Made by a program: the position numbers and the translations under genes
In this document: positions 40,095 to 59,090 of the stretch, in pieces
Position numbering within the stretch: position 1 is the stretch's first letter
Layout of the letters: each line of letters starts with the position of its first letter
Notes under the pieces: model-generated
Databases searched by the model: none
Told to the model about the DNA's origin: nothing
Seen by the model: only the letters and a program-made list of their open reading frames with translations
Assembly (NCBI GenBank): GCA_018175075.1
Contig: GCA_018175075.1_4100.1
DNA: 64,000 nt
DNA from: a phage
Reading direction: 5' to 3' (one strand)

Positions 40095-40195
40095 ATTTTT
40101 TCAGTACTGAATTTTGGGCGTAACTATGCACCCGGTGGGCTGGAGTCTTTCTCGACTTGATGGAACTATTATACAGTACTGGAAAAATAAAGCAA
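40095..40195 (-). ncRNA. GGGTGC-core promoter-proximal RNA element, copy 1 (with promoter)
   Basis: TTGCTT-N16-TATAAT then ..GUCGAGAAAGAC..AGCCCACCGGGUGC..UACGCCCAAAAU. Confidence 0.35.
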
Positions 40196-40319
40196 TACCC
40201 TGGATGAAAAAAGTTTTAATTAATTTGCTTGCCATCCTGGGCCGGACTATGGTACTATAATTCAGTACTGAGAAAGTGCGTTAACCTGCTAGGGTGCGGG
40301 AGTGTATCCTTTTTTTATA

Positions 40320-40410
40320 TCTTGAATTTTGGGCGTAATTCCGCACCCTCTGGGGTTTCCGCTTTCTCGCGTCTATGTAGTAATTATACGCTTTTTCAGG
40401 ATCAAGTCAA
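40320..40410 (-). ncRNA. GGGTGC-core RNA element, copy 2 (with promoter)
   Basis: TTGACT-N16-TATAAT then ..CGCGAGAAAGCG..CCCCAGAGGGUGC..UACGCCCAAAAU. Confidence 0.35.
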
Positions 40411-40561
40411 TACCTAAAAACAAATAATTGAAAATAATTTAACGCGTTTAAACGGCCCGTAACGCCCTGGAATGATTAGAATGGTGCAAATGTATAGCTT
40501 AGGTGTATTAATGCGTTAGAATGCGTCTGAGGCCGTTTTATGGGGTGTAGTAGTGATTTGG

Positions 40562-40654
40562 TTGATTCAGTACTGAATAATAGTACTCCTATATAGAAAG
40601 ATAGTTCCCCTGGATTGATTCAGTACTGAATAATAGTACTCCTATATAGAAAGA
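40562..40654 (+). repeat. tandem direct repeat, period 53 bp
   Basis: TTGATTCAGTACTGAATAATAGTACTCCTATATAGAAAGA at 40562 and 40615. Confidence 0.7.
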
Positions 40655-40685
40655 AAACTATTTTAAAAGTACATGTAGAAAGTAC

Positions 40686-40745
40686 TTGCACCGTACTGAT
40701 AAAAGCGTATAATGTTTTACATCGAGAGCGGGAACACTTCCCGCT
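40686..40745 (+). promoter_or_regulatory. mini-gene promoter + 5'UTR hairpin unit
   Basis: AGTACTTGCAC..TATAATGTTTTACATC + AGCGGGAA-CAC-TTCCCGCT. Confidence 0.6.
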
Positions 40746-40768
40746 ACACTTTAAAAGAGATGAAAACG

Positions 40769-41131
40769 ATGGCGACTCAAATCAATAAAATCATGCTTAA
40801 CCTGGTAAACTTCCGCGATGAGATGAAAGGTCTTCCGGCTGAAACTGTAAAAATTCACATTGCAGCTTATCGGGAACTTATTGCAATGTTGCCGCTTAAG
40901 CGTGAACAATACGCCGCTACTTTGATGCTGGATTCAATGATCCATGTAATGATCTCAAATGATTTAACGATGGTTTATCAGTACATGGGAGAAAATTTCG
41001 CGGTGTGTAGTAAGCCAGTACCAGGGATGGCAACTACTGAGGAATTGCACGGTTTAAATTTAAAGCAAGATGCATGGGATAATATGCCTCGTTTCCTGGT
41101 ATGGGCTGACAGTGGCAAAATTTACAAATAA
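40769..41131 (+). CDS. hypothetical protein
   Basis: 120 aa from MATQINK; the track start 40712 lies inside the -10 box. Confidence 0.6.
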   Translation: MATQINKIMLNLVNFRDEMKGLPAETVKIHIAAYRELIAMLPLKREQYAATLMLDSMIHVMISNDLTMVYQYMGENFAVCSKPVPGMATTEELHGLNLKQDAWDNMPRFLVWADSGKIYK

Positions 41132-41145
41132 GTTTAATAAAGTAC

Positions 41146-41204
41146 TTGCAAACTATGTTTAATGGCGTATAATGTTTTACATCAGGTGGGGAATAGTTCC
41201 CCAC
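41146..41204 (+). promoter_or_regulatory. mini-gene promoter + 5'UTR hairpin unit
   Basis: TTGCAA-N16-TATAATGTTTTACATC + GTGGGGAA-TAG-TTCCCCAC. Confidence 0.6.
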
Positions 41205-41224
41205 TATATAAGAGGATTAAAAAA

Positions 41225-41464
41225 ATGGCTAAATCAAAAATGTTCTTAGGTCACAAAAACAAAACTCATTGGAATGTAAGCCTGTGGATTAATAACGATG
41301 AGGGATTGTATCGGTTGGCCCTGGATTTTATTAACGACAACACTAATCGCAATGATGCGGCCCGTCATATGATGTTATTTTTAGAACAGACTGGACAAGA
41401 TAAAACACCGGACGGATTCAAATATAGCACTACTGCGATCCGTGCGGCGATGGTTGGAATGTAA
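41225..41464 (+). CDS. hypothetical protein (paralog of 43265..43504)
   Basis: MAKSKMFLGHKNKTHWNVSLWINNDEGLY...TPDGFKYSTTAIRAAMVGM. Confidence 0.7.
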   Translation: MAKSKMFLGHKNKTHWNVSLWINNDEGLYRLALDFINDNTNRNDAARHMMLFLEQTGQDKTPDGFKYSTTAIRAAMVGM

Positions 41465-41554
41465 TAGAATAGAATTTATTTAAAGTACTATCGCAAAAAA
41501 TGATAGTACTTTATAATAGTGTTTTATTCATACACCAACGATAAGGGCAACAGC

Positions 41555-41818
41555 ATGAATATTAAGTATTTTGCGACGCGTGAACAAGCTCGGATCGCTG
41601 CACGCCAGGACGGGGCAACGTTTAAAGATATGGGCGTACAATCGGAACGTGGTAAACGTTGGGCCATTGTAAAGCGTAGTACCGCCAGATCATTACAGTA
41701 CTGGTTAGCGGCCTTAAAAAGTCCCGATAGTGTATCGCGTCGAGTGGTAGAAATAAAGCTCGACCGAAAGGGCAACCGCGTGACCGTGTACCGTACTAAA
41801 AAGATTGCAGTACTATAA
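41555..41818 (+). CDS. hypothetical protein (paralog of 54831..55226)
   Basis: MNIKYFATREQARIAARQDGATFKDMG...DRKGNRVTVYRTKK. Confidence 0.65.
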   Translation: MNIKYFATREQARIAARQDGATFKDMGVQSERGKRWAIVKRSTARSLQYWLAALKSPDSVSRRVVEIKLDRKGNRVTVYRTKKIAVL

Positions 41819-41826
41819 AAAAGTAC

Positions 41827-41885
41827 TTGCAAACTCTGTTTAATGGCGTATAATGTTTTACATCGAGAGCGGGAACACTTCCCGC
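41827..41885 (+). promoter_or_regulatory. mini-gene promoter + 5'UTR hairpin unit
   Basis: TTGCAA-N16-TATAATGTTTTACATC + GCGGGAA-CAC-TTCCCGC. Confidence 0.6.
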
Positions 41886-41906
41886 CTATAACCTGGAGTA
41901 ATAAAA

Positions 41907-42137
41907 ATGACTAATATGTATATGACTGAAGTTAAAACCGTAAAAGATACTACCACAAATAAAGTTACTTACTTACAGCGGATCTGTGGTGTATGGCAAC
42001 GTATCAGCAAATCAAAGTACTATAAATTAACATCATATGCAAACCGTTCTGATTCATTCAGTACTGAAATAAAAGGTAATAAAGTACACCAATACGGCAC
42101 TTATTATTATTACAGCCTGGACGCGATTGCAGTATAA
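41907..42137 (+). CDS. hypothetical protein
   Basis: 76 aa; promoter + GCGGGAA/TTCCCGC hairpin + GGAG SD. Confidence 0.65.
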   Translation: MTNMYMTEVKTVKDTTTNKVTYLQRICGVWQRISKSKYYKLTSYANRSDSFSTEIKGNKVHQYGTYYYYSLDAIAV

Positions 42138-42167
42138 GCAGTTTACAAATCTTTACAATTGCCGGTA

Positions 42168-42260
42168 TTGACTTATTTTGTCAGTACTGGCATAATGTAT
42201 TCATTGGCAGATAAGCCGTAGCCCATAGGGTGCGGGAGTGTATCTATAGAAAAATTAGTT
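42168..42260 (+). ncRNA. GGGTGC-core RNA element, copy 3 (with promoter)
   Basis: TTGACT-N17-CATAAT then ..GGCAGAUAAGCC..GCCCAUAGGGUGC. Confidence 0.35.
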
Positions 42261-42340
42261 TAGTATAGTTACAATTGTGCACCCGGTGGGTTAGCTGTTG
42301 TCATGGGGTATATTATGCCAGTACTGGATAGTGCTGTCAA
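42250..42340 (-). ncRNA. GGGTGC-core RNA element, copy 4 (with promoter), convergent with copy 3
   Basis: TTGACA-N17-CATAAT then ..ACCCACCGGGUGCACAAUUGUAACUAU. Confidence 0.35.
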
Positions 42341-42384
42341 TACTTTTTTAATATTCAGTACTGAAAACTATTTTTAAAAAGTAC

Positions 42385-42530
42385 TTGCAAACTATGTTTA
42401 AAGGCGTATAATGTTTTACATCAGGACGGGGAACGAAATAAGTAACTTCCCGTTAAGTAGCCCAGGAGTAAGGCACACGAAAAACTCCCCTGATAAAATA
42501 GTTTGACAATTGTTTTTAAAAGCGTATAAT
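42385..42530 (+). ncRNA. conserved ~80-nt leader RNA L1 between tandem promoters
   Basis: TTGCAA..TATAAT, AUCAGG..ACGGGGAA/UUCCCGU..UAAGUAG..GGAG/CUCC..CCUGAU, then TTGACA-N16-TATAAT. Confidence 0.4.
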
Positions 42531-42562
42531 ACTTACATCAACTACTGAATGAGGGTTACAAA

Positions 42563-43174
42563 ATGAAAACTATCACTACTACTACTTTCGTTATGGATTT
42601 TTCTGAATTGAACGCAGAACAAAAAACGTCAGCTATCGAACTGGTTCGGGAACGTGAAAAAAACTCAAACGACAATTATTTTTCTGAAAGTGAAATTGAA
42701 TACTATAAAGAAACAGTACTACCGGAATATGGCATTAATGACGCTGAAATACAATTCAGTGGCTTTTGGTCCCAGGGTGACGGTGCATCAATCAGTACTG
42801 ACCACGTTGACGCAGTGAAGTTTTTACGCAAGGTAAGAGCATTAACTAAGTATCGCTCAATCCGTCACCTGCTGAATGAAGATGATTTGGCGATGAGTGT
42901 AAAGCGTTCGCACTCCCACTACTCGCATGAGAATACTGTAAGCGGGTACATTGAATCGGCTTACACTGATTTAACCGCAAAACAAGAAACGTTAGTTAAT
43001 GAGCTTGAGGAACTACTCACTGAAACTATTCGTGAATTGTCCCGCAAGTTGTACCGTGATTTAGAGAATGCATATGAGGATCAATTCACCACTGAAAACA
43101 TTACGGCACTGATTGAGGGTAACGAATATCAATTCAATGTTATTGATGGCGTAGTAGAATCAATCGAATATTAA
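42563..43174 (+). CDS. hypothetical acidic protein
   Basis: 203 aa; FSGFWSQGDGASI motif; tandem promoters + conserved leader upstream. Confidence 0.7.
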   Translation: MKTITTTTFVMDFSELNAEQKTSAIELVREREKNSNDNYFSESEIEYYKETVLPEYGINDAEIQFSGFWSQGDGASISTDHVDAVKFLRKVRALTKYRSIRHLLNEDDLAMSVKRSHSHYSHENTVSGYIESAYTDLTAKQETLVNELEELLTETIRELSRKLYRDLENAYEDQFTTENITALIEGNEYQFNVIDGVVESIEY

Positions 43175-43185
43175 TTTAAAAAGTA

Positions 43186-43245
43186 CTTGCAAACTAAGTT
43201 TAAAAGCGTATAATACTTTATATCGAGGCGGGGAATGGTTCCCCG
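43186..43245 (+). promoter_or_regulatory. mini-gene promoter + 5'UTR hairpin unit
   Basis: TTGCAA-N16-TATAAT + GCGGGGAA-TGG-TTCCCCGC. Confidence 0.6.
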
Positions 43246-43264
43246 CTCAAACGAGGATTTAAAA

Positions 43265-43504
43265 ATGGCTAGTACTAAAACTTACAACGGTCACAAAAAC
43301 AAAACTCATTGGAATGTAAGCCTTTGGATTAATAACGGTGAGTCATTGTATCGGCTTGCTCAAAGTTGCATCGCACAAAGTAGAACTAAAGATATTGCTG
43401 CGGAATGTATGTACCGCAGATTAAAAGCCAACGGTACTACTACAACGCCGGACGGCTTTAAGTATAGCACTACTGCGATCCGTGCTGCAATGGTTGGAAT
43501 GTAA
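43265..43504 (+). CDS. hypothetical protein (paralog of 41225..41464)
   Basis: MASTKTYNGHKNKTHWNVSLWINNGESLY... Confidence 0.7.
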   Translation: MASTKTYNGHKNKTHWNVSLWINNGESLYRLAQSCIAQSRTKDIAAECMYRRLKANGTTTTPDGFKYSTTAIRAAMVGM

Positions 43505-43561
43505 TATTCAGTACTGAGATAATGGCGGGGAATGGTTCCCGCCTTTACTGAGGGTTATCTA

Positions 43562-43849
43562 ATGAGTAAAGTAATAAAGTACAATGTGTTAAGTAAATCA
43601 TTGTCTATCAGTGAATGCACCGATGGTTTTTGGATGTACGATGAAACGCGTGGCATGAATTTAGCTATGCGTGCAAAAACTGCTGAGGCGGCGTATATTC
43701 AAGCACTGGAATACTACCAGGAACGTTTAAAGGAAGTAGAAGAAGATTATAAAAGCCTCAAAGCGAAAGTAGATCATTTCGTCGGTCAATTCGTGGAAGA
43801 CAACGACGAGGACGGGCACTACTGCGACCGTTGCGGATCTTACAGTTAA
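43562..43849 (+). CDS. hypothetical protein
   Basis: 95 aa; leader hairpin GGCGGGGAA/TTCCCGCC; GAGGG SD. Confidence 0.65.
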   Translation: MSKVIKYNVLSKSLSISECTDGFWMYDETRGMNLAMRAKTAEAAYIQALEYYQERLKEVEEDYKSLKAKVDHFVGQFVEDNDEDGHYCDRCGSYS

Positions 43850-43866
43850 GTACTAAGGATTATATA

Positions 43867-44079
43867 ATGAGTGATTTAATTGAACGTATCAAAGAGCTTG
43901 AAGAAAAAGAATTGCAGTTGATCGGGTTACGGAATAAAGTATTCCATGATTTAGGTGGCTTTATTAATGCCTGGGATAGTGGCGATCCTGATGCGTTACC
44001 TGCTAACCGCCAGGCGATGATCAATGATGTGCGTGGTGTCTTTGAGTATGTTTTAAAAGTACTAGACACTAAGCAATAA
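43867..44079 (+). CDS. hypothetical protein
   Basis: 70 aa from MSDLIERIKE; AAGGA SD. Confidence 0.6.
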   Translation: MSDLIERIKELEEKELQLIGLRNKVFHDLGGFINAWDSGDPDALPANRQAMINDVRGVFEYVLKVLDTKQ

Positions 44080-44140
44080 AGGCGTATAATACTTTATATT
44101 GGTACTGACAAACATTATAAGCGATTCAGGAGCTTTAATC

Positions 44141-44326
44141 ATGACAACATTATCTGAGGTTATCCGCGTTCAAGCTGCAAAGGCTGGAATGACTGTTATC
44201 AATGTAGGGATCAAGATTGAGATCTCCCCTAACGAGTTGCAAGGGATTCCCGATCCTACTAGCTGGGATCGTGCTGGGCGAATGATGCGTAATGCTTCAT
44301 TACTGGACGGTACAAAATTTAATTAA
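44141..44326 (+). CDS. hypothetical protein
   Basis: 61 aa from MTTLSEV; AGGAG SD. Confidence 0.6.
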   Translation: MTTLSEVIRVQAAKAGMTVINVGIKIEISPNELQGIPDPTSWDRAGRMMRNASLLDGTKFN

Positions 44327-44333
44327 AAAGTAC

Positions 44334-44392
44334 TTGCAATTAGTTTTTAGTACTGTATAATGGTTTACATCAAAGGGAGAAATGGTTCTCCC
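44334..44392 (+). promoter_or_regulatory. mini-gene promoter + 5'UTR hairpin unit
   Basis: TTGCAA-N16-TGTATAAT + GGGAGAA-ATGG-TTCTCCC. Confidence 0.6.
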
Positions 44393-44411
44393 TGGTAATG
44401 AGGAAAATAAA

Positions 44412-44633
44412 ATGGCTAATATCACTACTCTTTCCCAACTGGAAGCACTGGTTAAATCTATGCGGGAACATGCCGACAAAATCGGCGTACAAGATCCAGC
44501 CGTTTGCTTCTGCGACGAAATGAATGATGATACACTGGTAATAGCAGAAGTCCAGGACGTTTCTAACTATTCCTCGCGTTACACTGGCGGCGTAGCAAAT
44601 AAAGGTGACTTCTGTTTATACCTTACAAAATAA
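44412..44633 (+). CDS. hypothetical protein
   Basis: 73 aa from MANITT; promoter+hairpin; terminator follows. Confidence 0.65.
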   Translation: MANITTLSQLEALVKSMREHADKIGVQDPAVCFCDEMNDDTLVIAEVQDVSNYSSRYTGGVANKGDFCLYLTK

Positions 44634-44638
44634 CAACG

Positions 44639-44668
44639 CGGGGAGATAATAACTCCCCGTTACTTTTT
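44639..44668 (+). terminator. intrinsic terminator
   Basis: CGGGGAG-ATAATAA-CTCCCCG + TTACTTTTT. Confidence 0.6.
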
Positions 44669-44768
44669 CAGTACTGAATCATTTAATAGACGGATCTCGG
44701 CACCCGGTGGGTTAGTGACTGTTTCGTCTTGATGTAGTAATTATGCCAGTACTGGATGCACTTGTCAA
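44639..44768 (-). ncRNA. GGGTGC-core small RNA candidate, copy 5 (promoter to hairpin)
   Basis: TTGACA-N17-CATAAT (44763-44740); ..GACGAAACAGUC..ACCCACCGGGUGC..; ends at CGGGGAG/CTCCCCG hairpin. Confidence 0.4.
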
Positions 44769-44876
44769 CAACTATTTTTCAAATACTTTTTATTAAAATA
44801 CTTGCAATTAGTTTTTAAACGCGTATAATGTTTTGCATAGGGGGAGCGGTTCCCCTGGTAACTAAGGAATAATAAA

Positions 44877-45113
44877 ATGCTTGAACAAATCAAATCAACG
44901 TCTGCGAATGTAACGGGAACGGTAGCACACTTTACTAGTGATGAATCGCGGGGCGTTCCCTATTGTGCTGTACATGTAAACACTGAGGGTAACTACTGGT
45001 TTACGGTTTACGGATCATATTCATTTGGACGGCCTGGACATCAAAAAATTCTGGATAAAGTACAGCCAACGGGTAAAAATATCACTGCTGAAATGTTTTA
45101 TAAAAAATCATAA
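44877..45113 (+). CDS. hypothetical protein
   Basis: 78 aa; promoter+hairpin+AAGGA SD. Confidence 0.65.
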   Translation: MLEQIKSTSANVTGTVAHFTSDESRGVPYCAVHVNTEGNYWFTVYGSYSFGRPGHQKILDKVQPTGKNITAEMFYKKS

Positions 45114-45198
45114 AGTACTTGATAATAGTTTTTAGTACTGTATAATATTTTACATCGCAAGGGGGGAGCGGTTCCCCCTGGTAACTAAGGATAATCAA

Positions 45199-45498
45199 AT
45201 GAAAATTGCAATCATCGCCCTGGCTTTATCTGTTTCCTCTTTCGCTGTTAATGCGTCGTTAGATGTAAGTAGTGAAAAATTCATTCAGTGCACTGTAGCG
45301 ATGACCAATGAAAGTACTGGCGAGATTGTTTTAAAGGATTTAGAGATCCAGCCAGAAGCATTTAAAAACGGGCCGTTCCATGAAGAAGACGAAAAAGGTA
45401 GCACGACAATTTATTACGATGCAAGTACTAAACGCGGTTCGGTCACTGTTATGGATACTGAGAAAGTAACGCATTCCGGCGTTATTAATTGCCGTTGA
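45199..45498 (+). CDS. secreted small protein, two-Cys type
   Basis: signal peptide MKIAIIALALSVSSFAVNAS; FIQCTV...GVINCR. Confidence 0.65.
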   Translation: MKIAIIALALSVSSFAVNASLDVSSEKFIQCTVAMTNESTGEIVLKDLEIQPEAFKNGPFHEEDEKGSTTIYYDASTKRGSVTVMDTEKVTHSGVINCR

Positions 45499-45519
45499 TA
45501 GATACTACGGGGTAACATC

Positions 45520-45750
45520 ATGACTAAGCGAATTGTTTTACTTAACGAAAGCAGTACTACACAACTACTTAACGCCGTGCATTATGATATTGAAACGAGC
45601 GTTAATCTTATCAGTACTGTAGTACTGTTGGACACTGGAAAGGTCGCCAATGATAAAGCGATTGCAGGTATATTAACGGATCTTGAGCCTGGTAGCAGTG
45701 CACCAATAACGTTAAATGGTAAAGTGTTTAATATTTTACTCACTGATTAA
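45520..45750 (+). CDS. hypothetical protein
   Basis: 76 aa; followed by strong terminator. Confidence 0.6.
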   Translation: MTKRIVLLNESSTTQLLNAVHYDIETSVNLISTVVLLDTGKVANDKAIAGILTDLEPGSSAPITLNGKVFNILLTD

Positions 45751-45756
45751 GTACAT

Positions 45757-45779
45757 AGCCCACCTGGTGGGCTTTTTTG
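45757..45779 (+). terminator. intrinsic terminator
   Basis: AGCCCAC-CTG-GTGGGCT + T6. Confidence 0.7.
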
Positions 45780-45867
45780 TTTTTGTAGTATCGTAGTACT
45801 GAGATACTTTGAAAATAGTTTTAAAAAAATAGTTGACATTACCGCAAAAAGGCGTAGAATATATTAC

Positions 45868-45940
45868 ATCAAGACGGGGAGCACTAAGTAGACCGCCAGT
45901 AAGTCGAACGAAAAACTGGACACGTCGAGAAAACTTTGAT
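45868..45940 (+). ncRNA. leader RNA L3 (diverged copy)
   Basis: AUCAA-GACG..UAAGUAG..CCAGU-loop-ACUGG..CGUC..UUGAU nested pairs after TTGACA-N16-TAGAAT. Confidence 0.35.
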
Positions 45941-45983
45941 ACACTAATAAACGTAAACTAAACTTTAATTGAGGATTTATAAA

Positions 45984-46466
45984 ATGGCTAATGTAAAATC
46001 ATTCATCAAAGCACTGGTAGCAAATGAAACTAACGTCGCGGCTGAGATCCTGGCTGAACTGGATAACGATACCATGAAAGCGGTACGCAATAATTTTAAC
46101 ATCGCTTACAGTACTGCGAAAGAACTACAAGCAAATAAAGCGGCAGAAATTGAAGCGGCAAAGGCGGCCCGTGAAGCAGAACTACAAGCAACAATTGAAA
46201 GTATTCAGGCGGCAGTAGTTGGATTGGATCTGGAAGTAGTTACAGAGATGGCACAAAAAGCCCTGGCGAAAAAGTACGGTGAAGATAAGCCAGAAGTAAA
46301 AGCTAAAAAATGGATTCAAGAACGTGTAGCGGTAGTACTTGATAACGGGGAAGAATATCTGATTCCGGTGCGTGGTAACTGCATTGCGGTAGTACTGGAT
46401 GCGATTAACTCCAGTGGTATGACTCGCGAGGAATGGATCGAAGCTCATCGCAAAGTTGAAGCATAA
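45984..46466 (+). CDS. hypothetical Ala/Glu-rich helical protein
   Basis: 160 aa from MANVKSF; GAGGA SD; ~110-nt structured leader. Confidence 0.65.
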   Translation: MANVKSFIKALVANETNVAAEILAELDNDTMKAVRNNFNIAYSTAKELQANKAAEIEAAKAAREAELQATIESIQAAVVGLDLEVVTEMAQKALAKKYGEDKPEVKAKKWIQERVAVVLDNGEEYLIPVRGNCIAVVLDAINSSGMTREEWIEAHRKVEA

Positions 46467-46487
46467 CAATTAAAGTACTGAATCATT

Positions 46488-46514
46488 AGCCCACTTATAC
46501 AGTGGGCTTTTTTG
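46488..46514 (+). terminator. intrinsic terminator
   Basis: AGCCCACT-TATAC-AGTGGGCT + T6. Confidence 0.7.
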
Positions 46515-46750
46515 TGTTTATCGTTTACCAGGCCACCAGCACCGCCTAGAAACGATTCTAACGTATTAAACTGTTTATCTGATGCATTGCCCTAGCTGGT
46601 GGCGTTAAAGTCGTTAGAATGCGATTGAGTGCGTTTAAAGTATTTTGCAAAAAGTAATAAAAAGTACTTGCACGATTAAGAGATTAGCGTATAATGTTTT
46701 ACATCGAGAGGGGGAAACGGTTCTCCTTCCAAATCAAAGGAATCAAAACA

Positions 46751-47268: not shown

Positions 47269-47287
47269 AACAACTGAGGAAAATAAA

Positions 47288-52143: not shown

Positions 52144-52215
52144 TACTTGCATTTAGTTTTCAGTACTGTTATAGTACTTACATCAAGGGGAAACATCTTC
52201 CCCTACTAAGAGGAA

Positions 52216-52410: not shown

Positions 52411-52437
52411 TATTAATTTAATAGAGGATAACAATAA

Positions 52438-52761
52438 ATGTACATTCATACTACTATCACAAAGGAAGTCCGTTGCCAGTTCGAAAGTATTCCGGGCGTA
52501 TGTTTCATCACTGGTACGTTTTCCCCTGGTGATCGTGATAATCCAGTACTGTTACAATTACGCCATCCATCATGGGATAAAGCATTTGATCTACCGTTGA
52601 ATGAATTCGCAACTACTGCTGAAAAGTACATTAAAAATATTCGCGAGAATGATCGACTATTCATTAATGCTTTTAGTGATTCCGCGTTAAGCGAGATCCA
52701 CGGTGTATTGGTTGCAATCATGGAATCAATGGAGAAAACTAAATTCAAACAAGGTGAATAA
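52438..52761 (+). CDS. hypothetical protein
   Basis: 107 aa; AGAGGA SD. Confidence 0.65.
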   Translation: MYIHTTITKEVRCQFESIPGVCFITGTFSPGDRDNPVLLQLRHPSWDKAFDLPLNEFATTAEKYIKNIRENDRLFINAFSDSALSEIHGVLVAIMESMEKTKFKQGE

Positions 52762-52844
52762 AAACTATTGACAAGATAATCTAGTACTGTATAATAAGTT
52801 ACATGAAGGGGAGAAATGATTCTCCCCACTGAGAGGAAAGAAAA

Positions 52845-53057
52845 ATGCAAGGTCAACTAATCGTTCGTAAATGGTCTGATACTAACGCTAAACCGTGGGA
52901 TGTACAATACATCGGCCCCAATGGTGAATCCAGATATCAACCAGGTGTAACGCATAGTACTGAGCAATTCGCCGCCGCTCATCGTGAACGTCTGTTACAA
53001 TCAATGCAGCAAGGTTCCGGTGAAAAATTCATTCAGGATCATTGGCTGAAAGATTAA
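52845..53057 (+). CDS. hypothetical protein
   Basis: 70 aa; promoter+hairpin+GAGAGG SD. Confidence 0.65.
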   Translation: MQGQLIVRKWSDTNAKPWDVQYIGPNGESRYQPGVTHSTEQFAAAHRERLLQSMQQGSGEKFIQDHWLKD

Positions 53058-53143
53058 AAAGTACTTGCACAGTACTGAATAAAGTGTATAATGTTTTATA
53101 TCGGAAGGGGAATAGTTCCCCTCCCAACAAAGAGGAAAGTATA

Positions 53144-53317
53144 ATGATCCAAGTAGAATTATCAGTACTGAAAGATCTGTTTTATCGGTTAGGTACTAAT
53201 GGCGAGTATCCTAAAAGTGATACCGCAAAACTTTTTGTATCACTCGACTTATGGCAACGCGAACAATTAGTAATGTCCTGGCGTAAAGGTAAAGCAGATC
53301 GCGAGGTGAAAGCATGA
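53144..53317 (+). CDS. hypothetical protein
   Basis: 57 aa from MIQVELSVL; promoter+hairpin. Confidence 0.55.
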   Translation: MIQVELSVLKDLFYRLGTNGEYPKSDTAKLFVSLDLWQREQLVMSWRKGKADREVKA

Positions 53318-53463
53318 AAGAATTCTTATTCGAAGTAGTGTTTCAAGGTGTCGGTAGTAACCAACTGATTCGATCAAGTGGTTACAATGTCAACCAGGCA
53401 TGGAATAACATTAAACAAATGTACCCGAACGCTATCACCTATCGCAACCCGAAAGAAGTTTAA
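53314..53463 (+). CDS. 49-aa small protein
   Basis: ATGA coupling; MKEFLFEVVFQGVGSNQ... Confidence 0.45.
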   Translation: MKEFLFEVVFQGVGSNQLIRSSGYNVNQAWNNIKQMYPNAITYRNPKEV

Positions 53464-53477
53464 AAATAATTGAAAAA

Positions 53478-53560
53478 GGGATTGACTCCGGTCAGTCCCT
53501 TTGCTATTATATACGCATAGAAACAAATCAGCCCACCGGGTGCATAAATGTATCTATTGT
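53478..53560 (+). promoter_or_regulatory. fused terminator-promoter hairpin + GGGTGC-core element, copy 8
   Basis: GGGATTGAC-TCCG-GTCAGTCCC; TTGACT-N17-TATTAT; ..GCCCACCGGGUGC.. Confidence 0.55.
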
Positions 53561-53600
53561 TTGCTGGTGGCTAGTACTGAAAACTATTTTAAAAAAGTAC

Positions 53601-53744
53601 TTGCATTGTACTTAGAATAAAGTATAATGTTTTACATCAGGACGGGGAACGAAACAAGTAACCCCGTTAAGTAGTCCAGGAGTAAGACATACGAAAAACT
53701 CCCCTGATAAAATAGTTTGACAATAGAAAGTAAACGAGTATAAT
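53601..53744 (+). ncRNA. conserved ~80-nt leader RNA L2 between tandem promoters
   Basis: near-copy of L1 with ACGGGG/CCCCGU stem variant; downstream gene unrelated to that of L1. Confidence 0.4.
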
Positions 53745-53777
53745 ACTCACATCAACCACTGATAAGGAAACATAAAA

Positions 53778-54053
53778 ATGCGGATTCTACTGACAGCTAA
53801 CGAAATCGAACAAGTACTGACTACTAACCTGGAAGACTGGAAACGTGAAGCAGATATCCAGGCGGTTCAACAGCTTAACGATGAGTTAACGCCGGATGAC
53901 TTAAGCAAGATTGTAGATCCTCAATTCTACGAAGATATCCACGACACCGCGTTAAGCGTCGAGGATGTACTAGATAAGCACTACATTGATATTGATTTGC
54001 AGGTTTACGGTCGTAAAAACTTTATCACTATTCACGACATTTACAATAATTAA
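53778..54053 (+). CDS. hypothetical acidic protein
   Basis: 91 aa; tandem promoters + conserved leader upstream. Confidence 0.65.
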   Translation: MRILLTANEIEQVLTTNLEDWKREADIQAVQQLNDELTPDDLSKIVDPQFYEDIHDTALSVEDVLDKHYIDIDLQVYGRKNFITIHDIYNN

Positions 54054-54056
54054 GTA

Positions 54057-54118
54057 TTGACAAAGTATCTTAGTACTGTATAATAGTTTACATCGAGTGA
54101 GGGGAAACGGTTCCCCTC
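54057..54118 (+). promoter_or_regulatory. mini-gene promoter + 5'UTR hairpin unit
   Basis: TTGACA-N16-TGTATAAT + GAGGGGAA-ACGG-TTCCCCTC; near-identical copy at 54328-54390. Confidence 0.6.
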
Positions 54119-54141
54119 CTAACAAAGAGAGAGAAATAAAA

Positions 54142-54324
54142 ATGGCTAAGTGCACTATCTGCAAGAAAGAAATAGTATTAGTTCCAAGTGCCCGTGAACG
54201 TGCCGCTCGGTTCGGTGGCAAAGCGTCAGACTATACAAAAATGTTTACTACCCATGCAGCTTGCCAGGTAGCAAAACGTTCACAAGAAAGCGTAGAATTA
54301 ATGCGTAAACTTTCCAAAAAATAA
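54142..54324 (+). CDS. small Cys-containing protein (possible Zn ribbon)
   Basis: MAKCTICKKEIVLVP...THAACQV; promoter+hairpin. Confidence 0.6.
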   Translation: MAKCTICKKEIVLVPSARERAARFGGKASDYTKMFTTHAACQVAKRSQESVELMRKLSKK

Positions 54325-54411
54325 GTATTGACAAAGTATCTTAGTACTGTATAATAGTTTACATCAAGTGAGGGGAATGGTTCCCCTCCTAACTAAAAGA
54401 GAGAAATAAAA

Positions 54412-54735
54412 ATGGCTATGATCCTTGCCCAGAAAGTAGAATTGAAAATTGTAACCTCATTTGACATTAACGTTAATCGGTGGACTGATTCACACGGCAA
54501 TACTTACCACTCTTGCTACGTGTCTGCGTTAATTGGCGACCGCTGGGAAGACCTGGGACATGAAACCTTTACATACGGTTACGGCACACAAGGCGAATAC
54601 ACGGGCTTGGAGATCATTAAAGAAACCGTTATAGGTTTCAACCCGAAAGAAAAAGTTATTCACCAAATCGAAAAAGAGATTAACAAAGAAATAACAGTTC
54701 GATACAACGATGTAAAACGTAAGAAAGACATGTAA
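54412..54735 (+). CDS. hypothetical protein (paralog of 47590..47913)
   Basis: NRWTDSHGNTYHSCYVS...FTYGYGTQ...VKRKKDM. Confidence 0.7.
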   Translation: MAMILAQKVELKIVTSFDINVNRWTDSHGNTYHSCYVSALIGDRWEDLGHETFTYGYGTQGEYTGLEIIKETVIGFNPKEKVIHQIEKEINKEITVRYNDVKRKKDM

Positions 54736-54830
54736 TAGAATCCATTTAAAGTACTATTTGACATTGCCCAGATAGTACTTTATAATAGACTCTAACTTGT
54801 AGTACTAACTTAACTAATAGGATGTATACC

Positions 54831-55226
54831 ATGATTACTAAATTCTACGCTACCCGTGAAGCTGCCCGTATTGTTGCACGCGAGGAAGGAGCAGCATTTA
54901 AAGACATGGGCAAAGATGCACCGAAAGGCCAACGCTGGGCCGTACAGTTCAAAGAGATCTCTGATATTGTGAATTCACCTGAGCCAGTACTAACAGCAGC
55001 AGAACTAAAACGAGCGGATATGCTGGCGGCAATACTTGACGCACAAGATGAGTTTATCGCTGGTTCTGATATCAAAGTACAGGTAAACCACACCGCATGG
55101 ACTCACGCGGATCACCTGGCAAACCTTAAGCGTCCAAGTGAACTGATTCGCAACCAGAAAGAGATCCGACATGATCGTAAGGGTAATCGTGTAACAGTAT
55201 ACAGTAAACGCCGCCAGGTTATCTAA
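54831..55226 (+). CDS. hypothetical protein (paralog of 41555..41818)
   Basis: MITKFYATREAARIVAREEGAAFKDMG...DRKGNRVTVYSKRR. Confidence 0.65.
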   Translation: MITKFYATREAARIVAREEGAAFKDMGKDAPKGQRWAVQFKEISDIVNSPEPVLTAAELKRADMLAAILDAQDEFIAGSDIKVQVNHTAWTHADHLANLKRPSELIRNQKEIRHDRKGNRVTVYSKRRQVI

Positions 55227-55248
55227 TAACTTGCAGTACTAACAACAC

Positions 55249-55273
55249 GGCGGGATCAGTTCCCGCCTTTTTT
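55249..55273 (+). terminator. intrinsic terminator
   Basis: GGCGGGA-TCAG-TTCCCGCC + T6. Confidence 0.7.
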
Positions 55274-55287
55274 ATAGGACAAACAAA

Positions 55288-55542
55288 ATGATTAAGGTTC
55301 AACTATATAAAGATAACATCTTACGGGTACACTATAAAGCACCTCAGAGAATCATCACAAAGGCCGTACAGCTTGCTAATGAGTTTATTAATGGTAACCT
55401 ATTACCTAGGAAGTTAAGCAACGGGAAACTGCGTGTAATCGACGTGGACACTAACAACAGGATAGTAATCGAGAACACAGGAAAGATAAACCTTTATGAG
55501 CATCAACAATACAATAAGAAAATAAAACTAATATCACGTTGA
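55288..55542 (+). CDS. hypothetical protein
   Basis: 84 aa; follows terminator at 55249. Confidence 0.6.
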   Translation: MIKVQLYKDNILRVHYKAPQRIITKAVQLANEFINGNLLPRKLSNGKLRVIDVDTNNRIVIENTGKINLYEHQQYNKKIKLISR

Positions 55543-55595
55543 CAGTACTCAAATGTTTTAGTACTATGTACACATACCAACACGGGAGAAACAAA

Positions 55596-55814
55596 ATGAA
55601 ATTATCTAAAATCGAAAAGAAAACTATTGATGAAGCAGTTAAGCACGGTTATACCTTTCGTAATGATTCACATTTTACCAATTTTCAACAAGGGTATCGT
55701 ACTATTAAAAAACTAATTGACAAAGGTTTATTAGTTGAAGTCAATAACGGTAACGGTATCGAGTATCAACCAACACAAGACGCATTTTATTTTAAGAAAT
55801 ATAATATTATCTAA
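55596..55814 (+). CDS. hypothetical protein
   Basis: 72 aa from MKLSKIEKK; TTGACA-N17-TACTAT promoter at 55540. Confidence 0.6.
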   Translation: MKLSKIEKKTIDEAVKHGYTFRNDSHFTNFQQGYRTIKKLIDKGLLVEVNNGNGIEYQPTQDAFYFKKYNII

Positions 55815-55872
55815 TTGACAGTACTCAAATGTTTTAGTACTATATGTACATACCAACACGGGGAGAAACAAA

Positions 55873-56115
55873 ATGATTACTTTAGAAAAACGTATCAAAG
55901 AAACTACATCGCTGGTGGAACTGTTAACAGTACTGAAATGTAAAACAACACCATTCAGCACGCCGGACTTTATTAATATGGTTGATGTTAATGGTCGCTA
56001 TCGTATCACGGTCGTGAATGGTGCGGCGAAAGTATTCAGTACTAAAAACACTAAGGAAGTGATCCACGCCGTTAATGTTAAAAAAGTAGTTGCCATTGAT
56101 AGTAAAGTACTGTAA
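55873..56115 (+). CDS. hypothetical protein
   Basis: 80 aa; near-identical copy of the 55540 promoter upstream. Confidence 0.6.
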   Translation: MITLEKRIKETTSLVELLTVLKCKTTPFSTPDFINMVDVNGRYRITVVNGAAKVFSTKNTKEVIHAVNVKKVVAIDSKVL

Positions 56116-56146
56116 GATAGTTTCATTAACTCAAGGAGTAAATGCA

Positions 56147-56731
56147 ATGCGTAATTATACTAAATTCATCCGTACACTGTCAGAAATGGAAACCAACAAA
56201 GAGATCCTTTCAGCTTGTCGGTTAGCTGGCCTGGAGATCATCGGGGCGGGATCTTCCCGTATAGTTTTCGCTTTAAATGATCGGTTAGTGATTAAGGTCG
56301 CGAATTGTGATGCGGGTGTAGAACAAAATGAAACTGAATGTAAGGTATGGAATTTTTTAGACTATGACCGCCCTCAGTTGAAACAGTACTTTGCAAAGGT
56401 GCATATGCATTTATGCGATCCTGATAATATGTTTATCGTTATGGATCGGTTGAGTACTGCAAGCAAAGGCAGTGTGAAGCACGTTAACGCGTGCAATGAA
56501 TTAAAGTACAATATTAAACGTAATGCAATCGAACGCCAGCACCGCTTTGCTGATGCACTACAACACGTTGATGATACATTATCAACACTAACGATAAGAG
56601 ATATCAGAAAACAGAATATCGGCCAGGATCGTAATGGACTTATTAAAGTACTTGATTACGGTTTAACCCGCAATATCTGGAATCAGTACTATAAAAAGCG
56701 TGATGTAGCAGCAAGTAAGGTAACACGATAA
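56147..56731 (+). CDS. protein-kinase-like protein (mini-kinase 3)
   Basis: IIGAGSSRIVF...LVIKVA; RDIRKQNIGQDRNGLIKVLDYG; AAGGAG SD. Confidence 0.55.
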   Translation: MRNYTKFIRTLSEMETNKEILSACRLAGLEIIGAGSSRIVFALNDRLVIKVANCDAGVEQNETECKVWNFLDYDRPQLKQYFAKVHMHLCDPDNMFIVMDRLSTASKGSVKHVNACNELKYNIKRNAIERQHRFADALQHVDDTLSTLTIRDIRKQNIGQDRNGLIKVLDYGLTRNIWNQYYKKRDVAASKVTR

Positions 56732-56745
56732 AAAAGATTAAAAAA

Positions 56746-56832
56746 GGGATTGACTCCGGTCAGTCCCTTTGCTATTATATATTCATTGAGAGATAACTCA
56801 CTGACCCATAGGGTGCATAAGTGTATCTATTA
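56746..56832 (+). promoter_or_regulatory. fused terminator-promoter hairpin + GGGTGC-core element, copy 9
   Basis: same hairpin; TTGACT-N17-TATTAT; ..UGAGAGAUAACUCA..ACCCAUAGGGUGC. Confidence 0.55.
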
Positions 56833-56953
56833 TATAAGTATTCAGTACTGGAAACTATTTTTAAAAAGTACTTGCATTGTACTTAGAATCAAGTATAATG
56901 TTTTATATCGAGAGGGGGAAATGGTTCTCCCTGGTACATTAAGGAATAAAATC

Positions 56954-57175
56954 ATGACTACAATGACTTGCATTCACGCTTCAAACCTGCTTAATGATGC
57001 GGCCTTTAATGTTGATTCAGAATATCAATGTTATCGGGATGAAAATAAAAAAGTTTTTGTAGTTGATAATAATGGTTTCCATATTGAATTACAATCCGGC
57101 TTCACTGGTGTTGATGGTAAATCAGTATGGGGCGTACAGGATGATAAAGGTACATATCATTTTAAACGTAATTAA
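56954..57175 (+). CDS. hypothetical protein
   Basis: 73 aa from MTTMTCIH; the long track ORF runs through the regulatory module. Confidence 0.6.
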   Translation: MTTMTCIHASNLLNDAAFNVDSEYQCYRDENKKVFVVDNNGFHIELQSGFTGVDGKSVWGVQDDKGTYHFKRN

Positions 57176-57261
57176 GTATTGACAAAGTATATCAGTACTG
57201 TATAATAGTTTACATCAAGGGGAGAATAGTTCTCCCCACACCAATAAAAGGAAACAAAATT

Positions 57262-57534
57262 ATGTCCAGCTACTCCGCTACTATGATCATTAAAGATATG
57301 AACGGTAATCCTACTTCTGCTGGTGGATCATTTGGAAACATTAATTTAGATGGTCGGTTATCCATGCAATCAGCCATTGATGCAGCTAAAGAAGTTTTTA
57401 AGAATGAATGTACTGTAAGCAAGCTGGATTATATGGGATTCGCTATCGAGAAAACTAATCGTTTTGTGAACTACAAAAAGCCTATGATGATTGATACTAA
57501 CCTGAAAGCTAACGAAGTGGAATACTTATTATGA
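57262..57534 (+). CDS. hypothetical protein
   Basis: 90 aa; promoter+hairpin. Confidence 0.65.
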   Translation: MSSYSATMIIKDMNGNPTSAGGSFGNINLDGRLSMQSAIDAAKEVFKNECTVSKLDYMGFAIEKTNRFVNYKKPMMIDTNLKANEVEYLL

Positions 57535-57722
57535 CAGTAGAAGAAGTTAAAAAAGTACTGGCAGTACTACGCTATCATAATCATTGTAAGGTGAAGAATG
57601 ATCCTGATTATCTTGATTCATCCCTGGAGGAAGACACCTTAAACGCGATAAGCTATATGCAAACATTAGCAAAGCGTATGACCGAAAAGAATAGGCCGGA
57701 CTATATAGGAAATAAAATTTAA
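57531..57722 (+). CDS. hypothetical protein
   Basis: 63 aa; ATGA coupling. Confidence 0.6.
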   Translation: MTVEEVKKVLAVLRYHNHCKVKNDPDYLDSSLEEDTLNAISYMQTLAKRMTEKNRPDYIGNKI

Positions 57723-57809
57723 AAAGTACTTGCATTGTAGTTAGATTAACGTATAATGTTTTATATCGAGAGGGGGAAATGGTTTCCCCTCAAGTCCAGG
57801 AGATACACC

Positions 57810-58073
57810 ATGAACACTATCGAAATCACTATCAATGCACACGTATACGACAACGTAGTACTGCAAACTACTATGACCGCTAATGATACCAGTACTTTGC
57901 GGAATACTGTTATTAGTGCCGTATGTGCTGCAATCGGTGATGTCGCCCTGGAAAATGCAAAACACGTAAACGATGGTTTCACTATGTGCAAACGTGATAA
58001 CGCAAAACATATCATCGTGGAAGGTTACGGCGGTGTAGAATTTAATGTTTATATGAAAAAAGTACTTGCATAA
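57810..58073 (+). CDS. hypothetical protein
   Basis: 87 aa from MNTIEITI; 3' end (KKVLA*) overlaps the next -35. Confidence 0.65.
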   Translation: MNTIEITINAHVYDNVVLQTTMTANDTSTLRNTVISAVCAAIGDVALENAKHVNDGFTMCKRDNAKHIIVEGYGGVEFNVYMKKVLA

Positions 58074-58140
58074 TAACTAAAACAAAGTATAATGTTTTGC
58101 ATAGGGGGAGATATCCTCCCCCACTAAAAGGAGTAATAAA

Positions 58141-58365
58141 ATGGCTAACTTTGATGAACTGATGCGGGAAGTAGCTACCCTGGCAGAAGAGAAGAAATCA
58201 TTCGATTCTATCTATAACACCGCTCACCGTGATTCAGTACTGGCATGTACTCAGGATCAAAAAGATGAACTAATCGCCACCTATCATGAAGCATGGAAGT
58301 ACTACCGCCAATGGGAGAAAGAAGAAAGCGAGTCTACCATCAACGGCATCAATAATCTAATCTAA
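58141..58365 (+). CDS. hypothetical protein
   Basis: 74 aa; promoter+GGGGGAG/CTCCCCC hairpin. Confidence 0.65.
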   Translation: MANFDELMREVATLAEEKKSFDSIYNTAHRDSVLACTQDQKDELIATYHEAWKYYRQWEKEESESTINGINNLI

Positions 58366-58371
58366 AAGTTT

Positions 58372-58425
58372 TATTTCAGTACTATTGACATAGCTTGATA
58401 GTACTGATGTAATAACTTTACTAAC
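58372..58425 (+). repeat. type-2 promoter repeat (variant)
   Basis: ..TCAGTACTATTGACATAGCTTGATAGTACTGATGTAAT. Confidence 0.55.
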
Positions 58426-58441
58426 TACAAGGGGAAACATC

Positions 58442-58699
58442 ATGGAACAATTCACACAATATCGGGTAAATCCTCAAGCTATGGCCTACGTAGAAGACCA
58501 TAAAACGTTACCAGTACTGCAACCAGTTAAAGGCCATATCTATCGTGGCCTTGCCTGGGATACGGCCCAGGATGGATATAAAACCGTCGCAGTGGGGATG
58601 TATTGCGGGAATGGTGAATGGTTTGATCCTAACAATCCGATTGCACTTGACAGTACTGAAAAAATGAAATGGGCCGACTACATCGAAGATATTTCATAA
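58442..58699 (+). CDS. hypothetical protein
   Basis: 85 aa; type-2 promoter repeat upstream. Confidence 0.6.
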   Translation: MEQFTQYRVNPQAMAYVEDHKTLPVLQPVKGHIYRGLAWDTAQDGYKTVAVGMYCGNGEWFDPNNPIALDSTEKMKWADYIEDIS

Positions 58700-58789
58700 A
58701 AACTATTTGACAGTACTAACCAGTAATGTATAATGTTTTACATAGAGCGGGGGAATAGTTCTCCCGCCAATAGTTTGGAGTAAAACATT

Positions 58790-58990
58790 ATGTCTATCGC
58801 TATCGCCCTGGTTGAAGTACTGAAAGAAGCTAAAGCCAACCTTATCGATGTACAGATTAAGGAATTGCAAAACGGCTTAATCGGCTGTACTTGTACCGCT
58901 GGCGGTGCGGCAGACTATCGAGAACACGAATCACTCGAATCACTGGTTCGGTATCTTACCATGATCGTTGATGATTGGAGAATCATCTAA
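58790..58990 (+). CDS. hypothetical protein
   Basis: 66 aa; promoter+hairpin. Confidence 0.6.
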   Translation: MSIAIALVEVLKEAKANLIDVQIKELQNGLIGCTCTAGGAADYREHESLESLVRYLTMIVDDWRII

Positions 58991-59009
58991 CAAAAAAAGA
59001 ATAAAAAAA

Positions 59010-59090
59010 GGGATTGACTCCGGTCAGTCCCTTTGCTATTATATACGCATAGACAAAAACTAGCCCACAGGGTGCATAAGTGTATCCAAA
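59010..59090 (+). promoter_or_regulatory. fused terminator-promoter hairpin + GGGTGC-core element, copy 10
   Basis: same hairpin; TTGACT-N17-TATTAT; ..UAGACAAAAACUA..GCCCACAGGGUGC. Confidence 0.55.

Follow-up and report, generated by a model that had tools for sequence, protein, structure and literature searches.

A multi-copy family of promoter-driven structured RNAs in the terminal repeat of RaK2-like jumbo phages

Analysis of a 64-kb stretch of phage DNA (GenBank assembly GCA_018175075.1, contig GCA_018175075.1_4100.1; hereafter the window) allowed us to define a family of short structured RNA elements, each of which sits directly behind a promoter of its own. The family is real and statistically solid, and it is apparently undescribed; a literature search found no description of the element. 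Its distinguishing features are 115 distinct members, covariation, a conserved 12-base core and an occurrence limited to the terminal repeat. On the strength of predicted promoters and folds, the units are shown to be independent transcription units, each consisting of a strong host sigma-70 promoter and, under its control, a structured ~50-nt RNA module. We tentatively read them as stand-alone, multi-copy, immediate-early small-RNA genes, whose products would act in trans, with the invariant core engaging a conserved partner that is probably a protein. Known phage small RNAs are few, and almost none has a known function in virulent jumbo phages.

Element copies in the window

The core CCCANNGGGTGC has ten exact matches, all between positions 40128 and 59075, four in minus and six in plus orientation. 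When one mismatch is allowed, 0.86 matches are expected by chance, and none of 100 shuffles reached 11. Every copy is preceded by a near-consensus sigma-70 promoter of the form TTGNNN-16/17-nt-(T/C)AT(A/T)AT, with an extended TG in nine of the ten, and the distance from the -10 box to the core start is 21-28 nt. A sequence-only reading of this DNA had proposed about ten strong promoters, each closely followed by an element, and both the exact core and a promoter scan bear this out for all ten. It had also described four of the promoters as embedded in hairpins. This is indeed the arrangement of units 6, 8, 9 and 10 (listed below), where the -35 box lies within the terminator hairpin of the upstream gene and the -10 box within the T tract of that hairpin. 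Because the upstream terminator overlaps the promoter in these four units, their RNA is always a primary 5′ end. One promoter for each 50-nt RNA, often overlapping the terminator of the previous gene, is an unusual gene build. A conserved CAU lies ~7 nt after the -10 box, and its A is probably the RNA start, which would give a 5′ AUWG.

A covariance model (R1) was built from 19 family members. A search with such a model had been proposed as a check on the sequence-only reading; R1 recovers all ten copies in the window at 26-70 bits and adds a degenerate eleventh that the reading had not seen (17 bits), with no further copy in the 64 kb beyond these 11. The units are as follows, the first promoter coordinate (or the -35 position, for hairpin-embedded promoters) being the promoter start.

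Unit 1, 40110-40195, minus strand: promoter 40195-40168 (TTGCTT-16-TATAAT, with TG); RNA 40161-40110, exact core, tail ACGCCCAAAAUUC, directed toward the left genome end; R1 44.0 bits, E 3e-8.
Unit 2, 40325-40410, minus strand: promoter 40410-40383 (TTGACT-16-TATAAT); RNA 40376-40325, core CCCAGAGGGTGC; R1 27.5 bits.
Unit 3, 42168-42251, plus strand: promoter 42168-42196 (TTGACT-17-CATAAT, with TG); RNA 42201-42251; R1 54.7 bits; convergent with unit 4, the core-to-core gap being 45 nt.
Unit 4, 42261-42340, minus strand: promoter 42340-42312 (TTGACA-17-CATAAT, with TG); RNA 42301-42261, without the first hairpin (H1); R1 26.0 bits.
Unit 5, 44639-44768, minus strand: promoter 44768-44740; RNA element 44732-44682; R1 32.4 bits; then an AU-rich spacer with CAGUACUG and a bidirectional terminator hairpin at 44659-44639, terminator-like on the minus strand.
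Unit 6, 49480-49571, plus strand: terminator hairpin 49480-49507 containing the -35 box (49487); -10 box TATTAT; RNA 49520-49571; R1 70.4 bits, E 2e-14.
Unit 7, 51140-51226, plus strand: promoter 51140-51168 (TTGACA-17-CATAAT, with TG); RNA 51176-51226; R1 35.7 bits.
Unit 8, 53475-53561, plus strand: terminator hairpin 53475-53502 containing the -35 box (53482); RNA 53515-53561, H1 absent and only an A-rich segment present; R1 35.6 bits; Chi site at 53563.
Unit 9, 56743-56834, plus strand: terminator hairpin 56743-56770 containing the -35 box (56750); RNA 56783-56834; R1 69.8 bits.
Unit 10, 59007-59093, plus strand: terminator hairpin 59007-59034 containing the -35 box (59014); RNA 59053-59093, with a weak first stem (UAG/CUA); R1 40.7 bits; Chi site at 59122.
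Unit 11 (degenerate), 40229-40317, plus strand: promoter 40229-40258; RNA 40262-40315; R1 17.2 bits, E 0.065; the CCC strand is lost, and an alternative hairpin (H3, see below) with a run of seven T resembles a terminator (40291-40310 followed by TTTTTTT); convergent with unit 2.

The product of unit 5 is predicted to be a discrete RNA of ~100 nt, antisense to the gene direction. The further claim that neither a Shine-Dalgarno (SD) sequence nor an open reading frame (ORF) follows the element stands for the RNA itself, which is non-coding; behind the co-directional copies, however, the promoter of the next gene comes 55-57 nt after the core.

Fold and conservation of the RNA

The module is 41-55 nt long, typically ~50 nt, and reads from 5′ to 3′ as AUWG, the hairpin H1, the linker YUAR, the core CCC-AYA-GGGUGC, RGARRU and GYRYCY. 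H1 has a stem of 3-5 bp and a purine- or A-rich loop of 6-8 nt (AGAACAA, GCGAAA, AGAUAA, GAGAAA). When 81 distinct sequences are aligned by fitting to the model, 95% pairing is seen over the four pairs of this stem, every one of them in 3-5 pair types, and none of 500 shuffles reaches the covariation score. Alignment-free folding of the 5′ segment gives -3.29 kcal/mol, versus -1.02 kcal/mol for shuffles (z -20.7). The stem is absent in ~20% of copies, which keep the A-rich stretch. Within the window H1 is real in eight of the ten copies; the copies at 42290 (minus) and 53532 (plus) are without it, and the copy at 59064 (plus) has only its weak UAG/CUA stem. The covarying first hairpin with an A-rich loop, as proposed from the sequence, therefore describes the family well but not every copy in the window.

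The 12-base core is conserved across the 115 distinct members while H1 differs among them, with few variants (CCU..AGG, 4-nt loops) and with variable bases at its two middle positions. Unguided RNAalifold returns H1 together with a second hairpin, RCCC-AYA-GGGU. This hairpin is 99% paired and almost invariant, with 4 bp and a loop of 3-4 nt; the 4-nt loop occurs in several variants, the closing base is A or G opposite U, and two variants (L022:7801 and L008:4521) carry the compensatory double change CCU...AGG. Variants with 4-nt core loops co-occur with an H1 of the type UCCAG-NGAAA-UGGA, which hints at a contact between H1 and the core loop.

The second hairpin had been proposed from the sequence too, and while RNAalifold and the compensatory variants support it, it has a competitor for the same GGGU. 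The alternative helix H3 pairs GGGUGCR with UGYRYCY, 4 nt downstream, over 7 bp. Across 67 sequences, 89.6% of cells pair in H3, versus 28-60% when the partner is slid. Changes in its 3′ strand always keep G-U, G-C, U-A or U-G pairs, pairs 34:45 and 35:44 are unbroken in all 67 sequences, and both G36 variants stand opposite C43. Since H3 is rich in G-U pairs, it forms only in RNA of the transcribed strand, and since both helices use GGGU, RCCC/GGGU and H3 are mutually exclusive. Their mean constrained energies are -10.1 and -7.2 kcal/mol. Selection at the level of RNA, as had been suggested, is upheld by the covariation of H1, the fold energy relative to shuffles and the G-U pairing available only to the transcribed strand. 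Many single-sequence minimum-free-energy folds join AUAGA at the 5′ end to UCUAU in the tail as a closing helix, which was rejected as a family feature: cognate 5′/tail pairs average -4.57 kcal/mol versus -4.19 for non-cognate pairs (p 0.04), with a mean rank of 28 of 67.

Genome setting and distribution of the family

An 8-kb query from the region is up to 97% identical to E. coli jumbo myophages of the 121Q/PBECO4/SP27 group, and by this similarity the window source is a RaK2/121Q-like jumbo coliphage. In phage vB_Ec-M-J, positions 1-21,525 are annotated as a direct terminal repeat (DTR), and base 1 of this phage corresponds in the alignment to window position 39,039. The window therefore spans the right unique genome end, the junction and then the DTR, which occupies ~39.0-60.5 kb. 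From 40.7 kb on, every convincing ORF is small and read from the plus strand.

A 95-nt query of unit 7 matched 44 phage records, all of them RaK2-like jumbo phages (Escherichia, Klebsiella, Salmonella, Cronobacter). Pattern scans followed by R1 gave 94 matches in IMG/VR and 55 in metagenomes, which combine to the 115 distinct sequences. These members come from Escherichia, Klebsiella and Cronobacter phages and from uncultivated contigs, and represent at least five phage lineages. The database search for further members proposed alongside the sequence-only reading has in this way placed the family in RaK2-like jumbo phages and uncultivated contigs. Each genome has 8-14 units, which occur in either orientation and are confined to the direct terminal repeat. 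In Klebsiella phage Muenster every match falls inside the annotated 20-kb terminal repeat, and in a complete relative of 351,992 bp all ten matches lie within 18.8 kb, with none elsewhere. In RaK2-like genome records the units are currently unannotated or covered by spurious 'hypothetical protein' calls; the R1 model lets them be annotated in every such genome.

Outside phages, a 27-nt pattern had no match in 185,579 bacterial and archaeal species genomes. A 52-nt query had none in E. coli genomes, in a search that is too insensitive for short seeds. A host origin was rejected on these two results. Rfam 15 at gathering thresholds gave no match in the 64-kb window, and permissive Rfam scans of two units returned chance-level matches only, none of them on the element, so that assignment to a known RNA family was likewise rejected. 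ARAGORN found no tRNA or tmRNA gene in the window; a tRNA-like identity also fails on stem and loop sizes.

Orientation and downstream context

Seven of the 11 window copies are co-directional with the all-plus-strand gene array and four are antisense to it. Muenster and GAP32 have a similar share of copies directed against genes, and overall the share is about one third. Three arrangements recur in every genus: co-directional units overlapped by a terminator, convergent pairs, and units directed against the genes, especially near the left genome end. The genes flanking co-directional copies are unrelated to one another.

A census of downstream context, using crude criteria, covered 122 distinct units. 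A convergent partner is present for 34 of these (28%), at core gaps of 45, 56, 63 or 66-67 nt. The next gene's own promoter follows 26 units, 39-67 nt after the core. Another 16 (13%) lead to a terminator-like hairpin with no gene beyond; 12 of these hairpins start 34-41 nt after the core, and their sequences differ among units.

Possible roles of the element

Several properties lead us to favour, tentatively, the small-RNA reading. The orientation of units is independent of genes, they have dedicated upstream terminators (a subset also has downstream ones, at fixed spacing), and convergent twins are set at fixed spacing. Moreover, neighbouring genes are unrelated, the high copy number is doubled in the virion, and the core is invariant across host ranges while H1 varies. 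The sequence-only reading had mentioned a trans-acting small-RNA family as its alternative; this fits the architecture better than its first choice, discussed below, although neither is proven. Under the small-RNA reading, the units would be small-RNA genes and not gene leaders, and they would be expressed at very high dose once the repeat enters the cell, because packaged DNA holds every copy twice. The free RNA would act in trans, its core, presented on a compact fold, binding and then titrating or recruiting a postulated partner that is shared either by Enterobacteriaceae or by these phages and is most likely a protein. H1 occupies the same position as the 5′ hairpins of neighbouring mini-gene transcripts and would probably serve mainly to stabilise or protect the RNA 5′ end, and its A-rich loop may dock in the minor groove of the CCC/GGG helix. 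Three ways of forming the 3′ end are envisaged: termination ~40 nt past the core, an encounter with the convergent twin (by collision or by pairing), and processing within the AU-rich sequence behind the module.

Some observations count against this interpretation. In the census, 46 of the 122 units have none of the three downstream contexts, and the 26 units directly followed by the next gene's promoter could, for that reason, equally be 5′ leaders. The fold is ambiguous, as GGGU in the core has one possible pairing partner upstream and another downstream, and covariation counts are inflated by multi-copy paralogues. A literature search found no expression data for these phages.

A bolder form of the small-RNA reading, which we regard as somewhat unlikely, is that the family represents a new class of immediate-early RNA effector. 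Here an aptamer-like ~50-nt module would act on a conserved host protein (in transcription, RNA decay or defence, for instance), which it would either sequester or reprogram, with the two exclusive folds of the core as an on/off device. The 8-14 copies in the repeat would amount to 16-28 gene copies per packaged genome, fired by consensus host promoters in the first moments of infection. Whichever reading holds, the target bound by the RNA is probably central to the first minutes of infection, and this phage group is now being developed for therapy. Should the RNA be a decoy, phage strategies of host takeover or anti-defence would gain an RNA arm.

The first choice of the sequence-only reading was a cis-acting processive antitermination or anti-pausing RNA like HK022 put, where the nascent element binds its own RNA polymerase and carries it through early terminators. 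In the case of put, the contact is with the beta′ zinc-binding domain of the transcribing polymerase, and termination is suppressed with no need for protein factors. We consider such a role unlikely for the element. The put RNA measures ~70 nt and forms a V of two long stem-loops, stem I of which contains a triplex; there are two per genome, always co-directional with the operon served, and putL has an associated -10-like sequence with sigma-dependent pausing (PMC9378689). Both are phage structured RNAs made by host RNA polymerase with more than one hairpin, and just as putL lies just downstream of an early promoter, the element is promoter-proximal at a fixed distance. The seven co-directional copies of the window restart transcription right after a terminator in a terminator-dense region, and a core unchanged across phages of different hosts would suit a target as conserved as RNA polymerase. 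In half of 102 copies a -10-like hexamer (A2, T6, at least 4 of 6 matches) stands at a fixed offset right after the module and recalls the putL pause element (PMC9378689). Yet about one third of copies face away from all genes, the 28% in convergent pairs meet head-on, and the 13% with a terminator-like hairpin end there with nothing beyond. Downstream genes own their promoters and the flanking genes have nothing in common, which is again at odds with a cis-acting role. The build also differs, with 3-5 bp stems in ~50 nt and 8-14 copies per genome. A dedicated upstream terminator would moreover be needless for an element of the put or nut type, which works inside a transcript. If RNA polymerase did prove to be the target, the family would provide a second example of a put-type RNA, with a different structure.

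A role in the leader could also be exerted by a conformational switch or attenuator, in which a factor on the CCCA side frees GGG for the second hairpin (H3) and polymerase stops or pauses before the next gene. This is improbable, even though both helices have comparative support (99% pairing for RCCC/GGGU; 89.6% with only wobble-compatible changes for H3), their mean energies are close, and the H3 hairpin with its U run scores as a terminator in some copies, such as window 40291-40317. A U-rich tract directly follows this hairpin in only 11 of 102 copies, on which ground we rejected it as a general intrinsic terminator. Antisense and paired copies would have nothing to regulate, genes downstream have promoters of their own, and the 3′ strand changes are also readable as a conserved motif drifting by transitions. 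We would give a similarly low standing to a base-pairing, antisense-type small RNA with CUAR-CCCAYAGGGUGC as its seed against a conserved host or phage transcript. A short invariant stretch in an otherwise variable RNA is typical of seeds. Small RNAs of the Hfq type combine an accessible seed with an AU-rich site ahead of a 3′ intrinsic terminator and its U tail, and certain copies are laid out in the classical way, with an intrinsic terminator behind an AU-rich spacer. The proposed seed, though, is largely buried in a G-C hairpin and varies at its two middle bases, a terminator with a U tail is present in a minority of copies only (16 of 122 units for any terminator-like hairpin), and neither the window nor the complete 352-kb relative contains a complementary site besides the copies themselves.

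Very improbable, finally, is a DNA-level element, be it part of mobile PeSL-like promoter/terminator cassettes that shuffle early genes, a site for recombination or protein binding, or a replication origin in the repeat primed by transcription. The composite terminator/promoter cassette is present in classic form in four units (PMC4122927), and copies lie in both orientations between unrelated small genes of a hyperplastic region, with Chi nearby. Against this reading, the substitutions in H1 are compensatory and keep it paired, pairing relies on G-U wobbles possible only in transcribed-strand RNA, and the position of the element is fixed to the transcription start and not to cassette ends.

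Comparison with known systems

PeSLs consist of a sigma-70 early promoter fused to a stem-loop of the A3-4G3-loop-C3T3-4 type and lie between small unrelated ORFs of the T4-like hyperplastic region (PMC4122927). Units 6, 8, 9 and 10 have exactly this promoter/terminator build, a likeness that concerns the promoter part and not the RNA, and the initial transcribed ACAUC... is common to element promoters and neighbouring mini-gene promoters. PeSLs are described as cassettes for regulation and recombination that flank ORFs, with no conserved RNA in their definition, whereas the units described here carry a conserved, covarying, ORF-less RNA.

The nearest biological precedent is found in PA5oct, a distantly related Pseudomonas jumbo phage. 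Its ncRNA001 and ncRNA002 are ORF-less RNAs of the terminal repeat, 236 and 451 nt long, abundant through infection and each accounting for 1-5% of phage reads (PMC7318152). They resemble our units in being ORF-less RNAs inside a long direct terminal repeat, but differ in length and in being single-copy. Homology to ncRNA001 was rejected, there being no sequence similarity and no R1 match in L028.

In common with lambdoid nut sites (boxA plus boxB), the element has a short hairpin with a purine-rich loop and freely varying stem beside a conserved linear sequence near an early promoter. BoxA has the consensus CGCUCUUA / GCUCUUUA, and no match with up to one mismatch was found in the element or the next 80 nt at any of the 11 window copies. 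The loops of H1 are purine-rich but 6-8 nt long, compared with the GNRA-like, purine-rich loop of boxB to which an N protein binds, and H1 is missing from ~20% of copies. Many copies have CUAACC, the hexaloop of phi21 boxB (PMC12550061), in linker and core, though not as a hairpin loop. A nut-type site was rejected for want of boxA and for the position of CUAACC outside the loop; copy number and orientation do not fit either.

As a functional analogy, protein-sequestering multi-site RNAs of the CsrB/CsrC type and viral decoy RNAs are highly expressed and repeat a short conserved motif on variable hairpins, CAGGAUG in the units of CsrB. The family likewise has many motif repeats on variable hairpins, and its CAGGGUG resembles the CsrB motif, but the repeats are separate genes rather than parts of one RNA. 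As a CsrA site the element was rejected: the core has GGG where CsrA needs GGA, and GGA occurs in one variant only. RfaH recognises ops, with the consensus GGCGGTAGNNTG; GCGGTAGTGT in a few copies resembles it, but that position is A in most copies, and this identity was dismissed as well.

Other identities were also tried and discarded. Coding is conceivable for the copy at 42290 (minus), which could read MTTANPPGAQL from an ATG, but other copies have an in-frame TAG in the core (CCA TAG GGT) and no SD. The proteins encoded upstream and downstream are unrelated, which speaks against the leader of a particular gene family. A mimic of CRISPR repeats (RNA anti-CRISPR) finds no support, the best alignments to the E. 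coli I-E, I-F and Klebsiella I-E repeats being within the shuffled range. A type III antitoxin (ToxI-like), which would consist of tandem direct repeats beside a toxin gene, was set aside since copies are dispersed over 19 kb, have their own promoters and share no neighbour gene, the compared flanking genes being unrelated; the flanking proteins were not screened for toxins.

Other features of the terminal repeat

The first 1.7 kb of the genome (window 39039-40710) is non-coding and rich in repeats, and the homologous region of GAP32 carries similar ones. Four GGATTTTGGGCGTAG repeats occur here, two as the tails of units 1 and 2 and two as remnants at 39756 and 39782. Repeats with an 8-bp period lie at 39816-39945, a pair of direct repeats of 53 bp is found at 40562 and 40615, and the promoter at 40070-40042 is directed leftward. 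The promoter-driven, ORF-free stretches 39437-39550 (plus) and 40040-39945 (minus) fold better than shuffles (z -2.7 and -2.8).

The Chi sequence (GCTGGTGG, plus strand) is concentrated in the terminal repeat in one orientation, with nine of ten window sites at 39627-59122; an inverted Chi pair lies at 39615/39627, ~580 bp from the left genome end. In the relative OR844650.1, nine of 16 one-orientation Chi sites are inside the repeat, where 0.8 would be expected per genome. In several relatives a Chi site falls within the promoter spacer of element units.

The palindrome AGTACT occurs 283 times in the window versus 21.6 expected (13-fold), most densely at 36-60 kb; the next most enriched 6-bp palindrome reaches 2.3-fold. 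The longer CAGTACTG occurs 64 times versus 0.7 expected, and in the complete relative AGTACT is found genome-wide (919 versus 119 expected). Its locations include the spacers of many promoters (CAGTACTGGCATAAT), positions 31-41 nt behind the element core and the interior of genes, and it looks like a DNA-binding or modification site. Six GC-containing 6-bp palindromes (CCCGGG, CCATGG, CAGCTG, AGGCCT, AGCGCT, ACCGGT) have zero occurrences in the 64 kb, which may reflect avoidance of restriction sites.

Fur-box-like sequences, compared with the consensus GAGAATGATAATCATT, lie between or beside convergent element pairs in several relatives (L003 ~2890, L026 ~6080, L001 ~22640, L007 ~1290); none was noticed beside the window copies, for which no dedicated search was run.

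A second ORF-less, promoter-driven RNA is present in two copies (42419-42505 and 53637-53720, plus strand; ACAUCAGGACGGGGAAC...CUCCCCUGAUAAAAU). Both fold into a closed two-hairpin structure (-19.4 and -19.7 kcal/mol), and each has an element unit just upstream and another TTGACA promoter just downstream. Between 40670 and 59200 almost all mini-genes are driven by promoters of their own (AAAAGTACTTGCAA...GCGTATAAT); ACAUC and then a 5′ hairpin of the type GGGGAA-loop-UUCCCC come between this promoter and the SD. The promoter scan gave 106 promoter-like sites versus 68 expected, eleven of them perfect (12/12). This organisation resembles the PeSLs of T4-like hyperplastic regions (PMC4122927).

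The gene after unit 7 (51465-51722, plus strand) encodes an 85-residue DksA/TraR C4 zinc-finger protein (Pfam PF01258, E 5e-9, above cut-off), a candidate modulator of host RNA polymerase. On the other side of the junction, an uninterrupted series of twelve minus-strand genes (~245-410 amino acids) occupies 20097-34289, at a distance of 5-19 kb from the repeat boundary; one gene of this array was tested and gave weak, sub-threshold RCC1-like repeat matches. Their reading direction is the same as that of the leftward element promoters of the right-end repeat.

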